Assembly: GCF_006345805.1 (NCBI RefSeq)
Contig: NC_043015.1
Coordinates: 25,730,001-25,794,000, forward strand
DNA length: 64,000 nt
Direction: 5' to 3'
DNA from: Octopus sinensis
Taxonomy: Eukaryota
A program made the position numbers and the translations under genes. Of the stretch, positions 11,555 through 63,161 are shown piece by piece. The notes under the pieces were generated by a model. That model ran no database searches, was not told the DNA's origin, and saw only the letters and a list, made by a program, of their open reading frames with translations. Position 1 is the first letter of the stretch, and the number at the start of each line of letters is the position of its first letter.

Positions 11555-11600
11555 GACACCTGATGAAGGATGGAGGGTATATCAGCCGAAACGTTGTGGA
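11555..11600 (+). ncRNA. Minimal type I hammerhead ribozyme motif
   Basis: gacac CTGATGA a GGATGG agggtata TCAGCC GAAACGTT gtg; helix III is the ACGT palindrome; one mismatch in stem II. Confidence 0.65.
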
Positions 11601-11987
11601 CAAGATGAGGACAAATATCCATCAAATGTAAATAATGTAAATAATGTAGATAATTCCTCATTTTTTAAATATTGAACAGGTATTTCCTTGTCATGTACTA
11701 CACACATATATATGTGTTCGTGTACGTGCGTGTGTAGGTCAGTGTGTAAAATATATGTATATCTATCTCTCTGTCTATCTACGTATATACACAAGTGGTC
11801 CATCCCTGCTAAGACGATTTAGCGTCTTCCATCTTCCCTTGGTGGATATCTTCTAATTTACTAATGGTATTTTAAGGCTTTTGTAATACTGTTGTATTAC
11901 GAAATCATGAGCTTACGGGTACTTCTCAAACTGATTTCATTGAAGACACTTTTTCACTATATATATATATATATATATATATATATA

Positions 11988-12219
11988 ACATCTTATAATT
12001 AAGGGCTAAAGAAGGTTATTCTAAAGCCAATACACTGATTTATCCACTTATAATCCACTTGTTACAGGAAAATTGAACTGAAAGCGGGCAACTAACCTTT
12101 AGAAAATAAAGGTTAGTTGCCCGCTTTCAGTTCAATTTTCCTGTAACAAGTGGATTATAAGTGGATAAATCAGTGTATTGGCTTAGAATAACCTTCTTTA
12201 GCCCTTAATTATAAGATGT
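11988..12219. repeat. Near-perfect fold-back hairpin (~114-bp arms, 5-nt loop) within a (TA)n-flanked element
   Basis: 11988-12101 is the reverse complement of 12107-12219 with one visible 1-nt indel; loop gaaaa. Confidence 0.95.
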
Positions 12220-12543
12220 GTATACTTCAACCGTAAAAGTTTTTTTAATATACTGCCACGCTTTTTGATGGGATCCTTTTCTGTAGAGAAAGGGACTTCA
12301 TCCTATATTGTTAGTATACATATATATATATATATATAATATATATTATATATATATATATATATATATATATATATATATATATACAGAGAGAGAGAGA
12401 GAGAGAGAGAGAGAGAGGCACACACACACACACATATATTCATAGCTCATACACAATGTATGTGTTTCGTGTTTACGTTGAATTTGCGGCAGAATACCGT
12501 CTCAGGAGAGACTCCCTGATATATATATATATATATATATATA

Positions 12544-13250
12544 TAAGGAAAGATTTTTTTTTAAATGCAGAATGCTCAAATGAAAGAAAATTTTAATAAA
12601 ATGAGAAATTGATAAAATATATAAATATATATTTATTCAACCGGTTTTCGTCATTGTATGACTTGTCAAGAATATTTATGTTTTAAAAAGTTTTTTTTTA
12701 AATTAGAAAGGGGAAAAAAAGAAAATTGCATTGTTTTTTATAATTTGGGTTTTATTGAAGAATTCAAAAGAGTTGTCTCCCCTTACTCACAACACAGGAA
12801 CTGAAGAACCAGAAACACAATTACTACTACTTCCTGTCCTGCAAACATGCTGAATTAAACAACACAACACATGCTCTTAATCCCTTTGGATCTTAACACC
12901 TCAAGGTAATTTTTTCGTGAACAACCATAAAACTCAAGATACACAACGAACTCACAATGTATCGGAGAACTTATTTTTTAATTTTTGTACATTTTTATCA
13001 TTATTCTTTTACAAAAAACAATGCAATTTTTTTTTTCCCCTTTCTAATTTTTTAAAAAACTTTTTAAAACATAAATATTCTTGACAAGTCATACAATGAC
13101 GAAAACCGGTTGAATAAATATATATTTATAATTTTACAATTTCTCATTTTATTAAAATTTCTTTCATTTGAGCATTCTGCATTTTTAAAAAAATTTTTCC
13201 TTACTTATCATTTCTCCACGTGCGGTCAACACAACCCCACCATTTATTGA
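12544..13250 (+). mobile_element. (TA)n-flanked PLE-derived element with ~200-bp inverted arms
   Basis: 12544-12741 is the reverse complement of ~13008-13203; each arm has an HHR-like motif; (TA)n on both sides. Confidence 0.8.
13076..13116 (+). ncRNA. Hammerhead-like motif, U3-A8 core variant (inverted copy at 12634-12674)
   Basis: tattc TTGACAA GTCAT aca ATGAC GAAAACCGGTT gaata: 5-bp stem I, 5-bp stem II, palindromic helix III; one extra A makes the register ambiguous. Confidence 0.6.
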
Positions 13251-60776: not shown

Positions 60777-61229
60777 AATCAATGATTAAGGGTAAAATCA
60801 ATTAATTATTAATTAATTTCACCAAGTAGTGTTCAGTATGTAAAAGGCGTAGTACTTTACATACTGAACACTATTACATACTGAACACTATTACAAGGCG
60901 TATTCAAAATATTACGTTATATAATTAGGGCTCAGTAAAATAATTTACTTTGCCACATACTGAAATTTTTAGAAATAGCAGCCAAAAAATGTCGAGTTTA
61001 AATTCGACTAATCTAGAAACGTGAGCGTTCTCAAATAATCTTTGTACATGTGATATTTTGGTGTTTTCCCTCCATATCTACGTGAATTATTTTTGAGTAA
61101 ACACTATCTGGGAGACTCTTCTTAAAGTAGTAGAAATGGTTAAAAAAACTTTTTGGCTGCTATTTCTAAAATTTTCAGTATGCGGCAAAGTAAATTATTT
61201 TACTGAGCCCTAATTATATAACGTAATAT
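60777..61229. mobile_element. (TA)n-flanked element with ~80-bp inverted repeat and a small internal hairpin
   Basis: 60909-60989 is the reverse complement of 61150-61229; an 18-bp hairpin near 60827-60873 has its right arm tandemly duplicated. Confidence 0.8.
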
Positions 61230-61292
61230 ATATATATATATATATATATATATATATATATATATATATATATATATATATATATATATACA

Positions 61293-61701
61293 CTCTTTAC
61301 TCTTTCTCTTTTACTTGTTTCAGTCATTTGACTGCGGCCATGCTGGAGCACAGCCTTTAGTCGAGCAAATCGACCCCGGGACTTATTCTTTGTAAGCCCA
61401 GTACTTATTCTATCGGTCTCTTTTGCCGAACCGCAAAGTGACAGGGACGTAAACACACAAGCATCGGTTGTCAAGCAATGCTAGGGGGACAAACACACAC
61501 ACAAACATATACACACACATACATATATATATATACATATATACGACAGGCTTCTTTCAGTTTCTGTCTACCAAATCCACTCACAAGGCATTGGTCGGCC
61601 CGGGGCTAAAGCAGAAGACACTTGCCCAAGATGCCACGCAGTGGGACTGAACCCGGAACCATGTGGTTGGTAATCAAGCTACTTACCACACAGCCACTCC
61701 T
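61293..61701 (-). mobile_element. Full-length tRNA-derived SINE with internal microsatellite and CR1-like tail
   Basis: Head ggagtggctgtgtggtaag...gggttcagtccc; tail gctccagcatggccgcagtcaaatgactgaaac resembles the CR1-like 3' end at ~803-840. Confidence 0.85.
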
Positions 61702-62696
61702 CATATATATATATGTGTGTGTGTTTGTGTATGTGTGTGTTTGTGTGTGTATGTGTGTGTGTGTGTATGTGTGTGTACATACATATAAATAGATAGAGAG
61801 AGAGATAGACAGACATGAATATATGTGAACTATTGTCTTCGTATATCTGTGTATTAGGATGCCTGAGGACGTCATTGTTCATAGTTGACCATGTCTATGT
61901 GCTGCGGTGCTGTGCGGTAAGCATAATGGCCGATGCACTTTGTGTTTACTTGTGTGTTTTTGTTTGCAGAGTATACGGCAACAAAGCATACACAGACATA
62001 AAGCCACAAATATATCTACACGCAGAGATAAATATATAAACGTATTGATATAAATCAGTGTATTTACATACGTAAAATAACAATCGTTAGTCTTTTGATA
62101 AAGCATACATAATTAACACTATTGTCAGTCTAGAATGAAAGATGGATCTGCAAAAACTAGGAGGGGAACAGAATACCTTCAAGTGTTTAATCATGTCTAG
62201 CAATGTTTTACGCTCAAGTCACCCAGGTCATGATTTTTTGATACATCACAAAACAATTTACAGTTTCAGTAATGGCACTACAGTTCTCGAAAATAAATAT
62301 CCCCCGAAATACATGGCTGTTTGCGTCAGTTTGTAATAAGTGGTGTGTGCGTCCCTGTGTTAGGGATAACCTGGCTGTTCAGTAAAACAGAACGATATAA
62401 TAAATGTCAAGCTTTTCAAAAAAGTACTGCAAGGTGAGGGTTATTCGTTCGTCTACAACCCTTTAAGGTGGTGCCCCAGCCTGATCGTAGTCTGTAGACA
62501 AGTAAAACATAAACACACACTCAAACTTATATGTATGTATATATATATATATATATATATATAATATATTATATATATATATATTATATATATAATATAT
62601 ATATATATATGTATGCGTGTGTGTATGTGTGTATCTATATATACATACACACACATATACTTATATAAAACTTATGTATATAAATATAAATATATA

Positions 62697-63161
62697 TGAG
62701 GTATATTTGCCATCTCAATATGGCTAACCACTAAGGGTGGGTGTTACAAGCTACAGTAACACCCATCCTTAGTGGTTAGCCATATTGAGATGGCAAATAT
62801 TCCTCACATTGTCGTGCAGTTACTGTTTATACCTCGTTCAGAGATTTATTATTGCTTGCATACAGTTTTTCGAGATCAGTGACGAAAAGTTACTGGAAAA
62901 ATGATATAAGTATTTGCATTGGGACCCCTTTTATCGAAAACCGGTGATTGTCGTACACTAATGACACGTCAATACCTAGAAACTGCAGTCCGTGCGTATC
63001 ACTTAGGTTGACTTAAGTGCACAGAAAGTGTGACTAAAGCCAGTTCTCCTGGGGCTACAAGCTACAGTAACACCCACCCTTAGTGGTTAGCCATATTGAG
63101 ATGGCAAATATACCTCACATTGTCGTGCAGTTACTGTTTATACCTCGTTCAGAGATTTATT
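62697..63161 (+). mobile_element. Retrozyme/pLTR-like element: 5' inverted segment plus 106-bp direct repeats (period 311 bp)
   Basis: Hairpin 62697-62806; 62745-62850 repeated at 63056-63161; TA-rich tracts on both sides. Confidence 0.85.
62952..62996 (+). ncRNA. Degenerate hammerhead motif (G5A)
   Basis: cgtaca CTAATGA cacgt caat acct a GAAACTGCAGTC cgtgcg: ACTGCAGT palindrome plus GUC. Confidence 0.6.

Follow-up and report, generated by a model that had tools for sequence, protein, structure and literature searches.

Minimal type I hammerheads with a short helix III were reportedly described in the pLTRs of Penelope-like elements (PLEs) by Lunse et al. in 2017. The motif set closest to the sequences analysed here (Cervera & de la Pena 2014, PMC4209133) shares with them a CUGANGA core, one additional base ahead of helix II, a GAAA–palindrome–UH segment, the U3–A8 core variant, AU-rich flanks, several families per genome and pairs of motifs on opposite strands 100–700 bp apart. 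The consensus in its Fig. S3 reads 'GAAAN Palind NU H'. By our own count from that figure, ACGU is the palindrome in 29 of the 56 published motifs and two families have one palindrome in common in eight of 11 multi-family genomes; palindromes may also differ between families of one genome, as with CGCG and GGCC in Aedes. These entries show that variation between families has already been published and that a palindrome unique to each family is not the rule. ASBVd and newt satellite RNA form a double hammerhead (Forster et al. 1988, as cited in PMC4209133, PMC6765202 and PMC6466107) in which two motifs merge their stems III, as is predicted here, with cleavage possible in multimers but restricted in monomers; unlike those RNAs, the present copies do not belong to a single replicon but appear to be genomic relics of several retroelement families. 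Metazoan non-LTR retrozymes (Cervera & de la Pena 2020, PMC7229834; Li et al. 2026, 10.64898/2026.07.22.740005) resemble one of our families in being non-coding tandems with type I hammerheads from which one self-paired unit is predicted to be released. The latter source recognizes them by a GC content below 50%, the lack of coding sequence and the presence of complete hammerheads in two successive units.

The window, by which we mean the whole stretch of 64,000 nucleotides analysed, is AT-rich, microsatellite-dense DNA of animal type in which decayed transposon frames are present. A sequence-only reading had listed ten sites at which GAA is followed by a self-complementary helix III, with a different palindrome in almost every family. 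All ten palindromes are present, exactly at or one base off the position given (that noted at 37703 occupies 37704–37711, with its GAA on the minus strand), and nine follow GAA directly; the exception, at 13105, is preceded by GAAA, with one extra A. Eight distinct palindromes occur among the ten sites, and the seven of 6–8 nt all differ from one another, but ACGT stands at three sites in at least two families. Self-complementarity is kept in most copies and broken in five of the 17 family copies in the window. The observation as a whole holds in part. The bare pattern, GAA plus an A..T palindrome of 4–10 nt, was found 112 times in the window (64 on the plus strand, 48 on the minus strand) compared with 66.9 ± 8.3 times in 30 block-wise dinucleotide shuffles, and is therefore not in itself a hammerhead. 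Palindromes of 8 nt using all four letters are enriched, with 10 in the window versus 1.9 in shuffles (maximum 5). Six of the ten sites lie in a recognizable type I hammerhead (11591, 13105, 27628, 38268, 40467 and 44767), several of them decayed. Sites 25304 and 44830 belong to 5'-truncated copies, which align to core-bearing copies but have no core themselves, and no hammerhead is demonstrable at 37704 or 62982, the latter being possibly a decayed one. The motifs are real and of a described class, and their number had been partly inflated.

We searched for hammerheads with a descriptor that is blind to palindromes, using a score cut-off of ≥14 and 30 shuffles as control; the score weights were chosen after preliminary results were known. 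Twelve matches were obtained in the window, compared with a shuffle mean of 1.27 (maximum 4). Five have an exact palindrome of at least 4 nt, two have ACCGGT plus the extra A and three are one change off; of the remaining two, one has just a 2-nt AT within a simple repeat and the other is not palindromic. Palindromic matches arose at 0.2 per shuffle. When a type I hammerhead was defined by the core N3-U-G-A-N-N8-A with a 3–8 pair, GAAA, UH and helices I and II, it was found with zero core mismatches at 40467/40912, 13105/12645, 11591, 27628 and 16251 and with at most one in the 37867 and 15747 region twins; 25304, 44830, 37704 and 62982 fall outside the definition. The Rfam hammerhead model gave no match to the window at gathering score, and the 150 of 605 matches listed by E-value were all to microRNA models lying on simple repeats. 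When 12 other segments, repeated or inverted, were scanned with a relaxed core, no further convincing hammerhead came to light. The five palindromes of 8 nt could alternatively fold into a 2-bp stem capped by a tetraloop.

Masked self-BLAST of the window (11,206 of 64,000 bases masked or N) and inspection sorted 17 copies into seven families, F1 to F7, plus an F4-like copy (Table 1). The assignment of F5, which has a single full copy and an inverted partner without the GAA–palindrome part, is less certain.

Table 1. Hammerhead copies and related palindrome sites in the window
Feature	Position	Strand	Description
F1 type I hammerhead	11557..11598	+	core intact, one helix II mismatch, helix III ACGT (11591)
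F1 inverted partner	11318..11363	-	helix II intact; helix III ACGC (broken)
F2 hammerhead	13076..13116	+	U3-A8 core TTGACAA; GAAA then ACCGGT (13105)
F2 inverted partner	12634..12674	-	motif as at 13076..13116
F3 hammerhead	15735..15820	-	helix II with long loop; ACGATTGT as helix III, palindromic but for one change
F3 inverted partner	16178..16263	+	helix III AAGATCGT (broken)
F3 5'-truncated copy	44776..44969	+	palindrome ACGATCGT (44830) intact; without core
F4 hammerhead	24281..24316	-	core decayed; helix III ACAT (broken)
F4 decayed copy	25218..25250	-	ACGT; inverted partner of 25304
F4 5'-truncated copy	25294..25388	+	ACGT (25304); without core
F4-like hammerhead F4b	44740..44776	+	intact core CTGAAGA, helix II decayed, ACGT (44767); score 12.4
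F5 candidate hammerhead	27586..27637	+	G3-C8 core GTGAACA, AATATT (27628); score 19.6
F6 hammerhead	37855..37902	-	core CCGATGA; ACAGCTGT (37867); score 15.9
F6 inverted partner	38233..38280	+	core CCGATGA; ACAGCTGT (38268); helix I 3' strand mutated
F6 third copy	52908..52957	-	core decayed; GCAGCTGT (broken)
F7 partial tandem	40261..41027	+	hammerheads with ACCGCGGT at 40467 and 40912; 40467 intact
GAA-ACAATTGT site	37704..37711	-	(TA)n stands where core expected; no hammerhead demonstrable
GAA-ACTGCAGT site	62982..62989	+	behind CTAATGA, no helix II; inside 311-bp partial tandem

The surroundings of the copies resemble those of PLE insertions, for which a tandem or inverted structure and a bias towards (TA)n have been described (PMC8557442). 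In the window, copies cut short at the 5' end and set in partial tandems or inverted pairs occur next to (TA)n; we count six inverted pairs and one direct tandem. The simple repeat next 3' of the motif lies at a median distance of 116 nt, compared with 261.5 nt at random positions, and 15 of 19 sites, which are not independent of one another, lie within 220 nt of a simple repeat as against 46% of random positions. Pfam searches of all 254 ORFs, short decayed frames apart, gave no match to a reverse transcriptase (RT) or GIY-YIG domain, the best match being a mariner HTH (E 5e-5); both domains would be missing from copies that are truncated or non-autonomous. Since neither was matched among these ORFs, a PLE origin is something we infer, and the motifs likely come from terminal repeats of several truncated PLE families or their non-coding derivatives. 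The window differs from the PLE set of PMC4209133 in having more long (6–8 nt) palindromes, a G3–C8 candidate core, a CCGAUGA core and no PLE coding remnant that we could find in it. About seven more families are hereby added to the described class of retroelement hammerheads.

The F7 tandem is bounded by (TA)n on either side and holds two 322-bp copies, identical in sequence, with a 123-bp spacer separating them. The unconstrained MFE fold of positions 40395–40935 is a double hammerhead (z −3.23; none of 100 shuffles as stable), in which the two ACCGCGGU are paired together, the helix I strands are exchanged and both cores are open. The predicted probability (P) of the dimer helix III in the native tandem is 0.98, while the helix III pairs of one copy alone have P ≤0.009. 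Replacement of one palindrome reduced the predicted dimer helix III to 0.00 in four of four swaps, and replacement of both brought it to 0.25–0.97 in four of four double swaps. These folding predictions, with loss on single and recovery on double exchange, lend support to the earlier statement that a palindromic helix III supports dimeric folding. Because the predicted double hammerhead needs matching palindromes, the physical premise of dimer pairing appears to hold.

Family-wide statistics cover F6 alone, a high-copy family that was compared with contigs from two runs (3865 and 2127) and with RNA reads from two others (508 and 377), possibly from related species (best word share 0.26). Among 40 of 129 variant rows listed, positions 38264–38277, which include the palindrome, have no variant and core position 38238 (CCGATGA) is unchanged; CTGATGA copies do exist in the loose-end consensus. 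The majority letters of the F6 copies restore helix I, and the change 38263 T>C (9–31% by run) converts a G–U pair of helix II to G–C. RNA reads, in roughly equal number from either strand, run across the predicted cut, and in the two RNA runs read ends do not pile up there, a weak test with fragmented libraries of mixed copies. Read-through of this kind fits a family code but does not test it. We considered A-to-I editing of F6 but set it aside: 17 of 40 variant places (X18) and 43 of 95 (X21) were A>G or T>C, and the runs are of different organisms. We found no literature report on whether U4-to-C abolishes cleavage.

It had also been proposed that a palindrome code keeps solitary copies in host pre-mRNAs inactive. 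Pfam searches of the 254 ORFs identified no host exon or host gene in the window, which leaves that setting hypothetical here, and silence needs merely an unstable helix III, not a palindrome for each family. The argument that a weak helix III limits lone copies has already been made for double hammerheads (PMC4209133). Invertebrate hammerheads, for which a helix III of 2 bp plus a tetraloop has been described, reportedly cleave as monomers in most cases (PMC7229834, PMC7761336). Among retrozymes, single-copy constructs cleave at ~0.8 per min (coral) and ~0.1 per min (mussel), and axolotl monomers were cleaved to 6% and 22% in an hour (PMC7229834). We predicted the folding of transcripts running through five of the six inverted pairs. 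Helix II had P 0.00 in all nine copies, two of which were already at 0.00 alone, and in eight of the nine 88–100% of the hammerhead bases were paired outside the motif. An anole PLE hammerhead reportedly fails to cleave unless the protein of the element is present, and RNA-seq reads do not end at its site (PMC11167929). It is likely that scattered copies are silent because they are decayed or truncated and because pairing with an inverted partner would trap them in long duplexes; a need of cleavage for the element's own protein may also contribute.

Taking these results together, we put the probability at about three in four that the palindromes are mostly helix III of PLE-derived type I hammerheads, self-complementary for dimer pairing, with family differences that arose by independent drift and not as a selected code. 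Two copies of one element would pair through the palindrome to give a double hammerhead; each palindrome is likely self-complementary because two such copies pair through it, and palindromes would differ between families because each lineage likely changed its own independently while self-complementarity was kept. Restriction of pairing to the family would then be a predicted by-product, enforced by helix I too. The rival built on the sequence-only reading is that the palindromes were selected as a dimerisation code specific to each family, by which cleavage would be confined to tandems of one family and host transcripts protected. Several results would suit such a code, namely the outcome of the single and double swaps, the invariance of the F6 palindrome among the variant rows listed and the differences between all seven long palindromes, although differences of this kind at 6–8 nt are allowed by drift and also expected from selection for orthogonality. 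Trans co-folding points the same way in part. Homodimer helix III is predicted at P 0.91–0.98 for F2, F6 and F7 and at 0.00–0.13 for F1, F4b and F5, and in cross-family co-folds helix III on both sides reaches at most 0.09 in 15 of 15 pairs (0.49 on one side for F2–F7); pairing specificity itself is therefore predicted. However, ACGT is common to F1, F4 and F4b, and co-folds of these families do not favour self (0.09 for F1–F4b versus 0.13 for F1–F1 and 0.00 for F4b–F4b). Moreover, helix I is likewise exchanged between the partners of a type I double hammerhead, and when the best-preserved copies stand for F3 and F4 it rules out 27 of 28 cross-group pairs compared with 25 of 28 for helix III, separating the families at least as well as the palindrome does. 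The palindromes common to two families in most of the published multi-family genomes, the cleavage of coral and mussel single copies and the lack of an identified host gene in the window also argue against a code, which we consider unlikely; what the co-folds do predict is dimer pairing through matching palindromes. In the available portions of the literature on these ribozymes (including PMC6765202, PMC6466107, PMC6431247, PMC8490949 and PMC7761336) we found no statement of the family-code hypothesis or heterodimer test.

A different role for the palindrome, as primarily an RNA–RNA pairing signal that joins two templates for reverse transcriptase and so explains tandem and inverted insertions, with cleavage secondary, could draw on the anole PLE, in which hammerhead cleavage is dispensable for insertion in vitro, catalytic mutants leaving it unchanged, and whose protein is a predicted dimer (PMC11167929). 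High-copy F6 keeps both CCGATGA and its palindrome among the 40 of 129 rows listed, but CTGATGA copies of the family exist; furthermore, Naiad PLEs make equal insertion structures without canonical hammerheads (PMC8557442), and we regard such a role as improbable. We are scarcely more inclined to the version in which long orthogonal palindromes together with helix I are selected self-recognition tags, pairing two same-family template RNAs for their own reverse transcriptase even in high-copy F6 with its drifted CCGAUGA core, the window also holding F7 as a young 445-nt retrozyme. If selection for orthogonal palindromes did prove true, it would provide a role for PLE hammerheads, whose in vivo function is called unknown in PMC8557442 and PMC7761336. 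A very improbable reading is that, the genome being AT-rich, the majority of the sites match GAA plus a palindrome by chance. The abundance of the bare pattern even in shuffles, sites 37704 and 62982 and the lack of a gathering-level Rfam match would be expected on that account, but it is contradicted by the enrichment of descriptor matches, the repeated family copies, the double-hammerhead MFE fold and the F6 letters that restore helix I and change a helix II pair from G–U to G–C, and is already refuted for eight of the ten sites, 37704 and 62982 excepted.

Under the preferred reading, in which the palindromes are helix III of PLE-derived hammerheads, F7 stands out as a retrozyme candidate. 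It is a direct tandem with two type I hammerheads, non-coding and of 38% GC, the second unit being partial, and two predicted cuts (40475 and 40920) would release a unit of 445 nt. In contrast to the retrozymes of PMC7229834, F7 is a partial tandem only and is known from its sequence and predicted fold; its unit lies above the 170–400 nt of expressed circles and inside the 150–450 bp repeat range given in that source. The intact F7 tandem with its predicted double hammerhead, the natural 8-nt palindromes, which lend themselves to swap experiments, and the natural core variants U3–A8, G3–C8 and U4-to-C together offer a test set.

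In F7, one of the repeat families with type I hammerhead motifs, a partial tandem comprises two 322-bp copies that are identical to each other. This tandem is young. A double hammerhead, in which two copies pair through matching palindromes, is predicted by modelling to free a 445-nt unit from it, and tandem and unit together represent a candidate retrozyme.

In the F6 family, CCGATGA forms the core in both arms (U4 to C), and CTGATGA is present in some copies. Among the 40 of 129 variant rows listed for the four runs aligned to F6 (two contig and two RNA runs), none changed the CCGATGA core. 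An opposite-strand joint at 38269/38281, which adjoins the predicted F6 cut, was supported by 14 reads in one RNA run and 19 in the other, whereas the two contig runs showed none; its source may be either library fold-back or a genomic locus of the sequenced organism.

The single full F5 copy with a G3-C8 core (n=1) is a candidate natural core swap. A passage of PMC11167929 describes a G3-C8 double mutant as partly active in a different PLE (Penelope-like element) hammerhead. Both F2 inverted copies carry a U3-A8 core variant, and in each an additional A separates GAA from ACCGGT.

Features in the window
Feature	Position	Strand	Evidence
F7 partial tandem	40261-41027
F6 core, two arms	38237-38243; 37892-37898
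F5 core	27589-27595
F2 inverted copies	13081-13111; 12639-12669
F4-like hammerhead and F3 copy	44740-44969
Direct repeat around site 62982	62697-63161
Long inverted repeats near simple repeats	9626-9759; 11988-12219; 23833-24054; 35094-35374; 60913-61225
Mariner HTH remnant	7547-7753	-	Pfam, E 5e-5
LINE-type and restriction-endonuclease-type frames	331-2196; 47988-48263	+	By-eye resemblance

A relaxed core scan revealed a convincing hammerhead in none of the five long inverted repeats. The two frames, which by eye we take to resemble retroelement remnants, gave zero Pfam matches. Around the putative hammerhead site at 62982, a 106-bp direct repeat (2 differences, period 311 bp) has an inversion at its 5' side and AT-rich simple repeats flanking both sides, a layout that is PLE-like. 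Elsewhere, the F4-like hammerhead directly adjoins a 5'-truncated F3 copy, the junction being the exact end of the F4-like helix I 3' strand.
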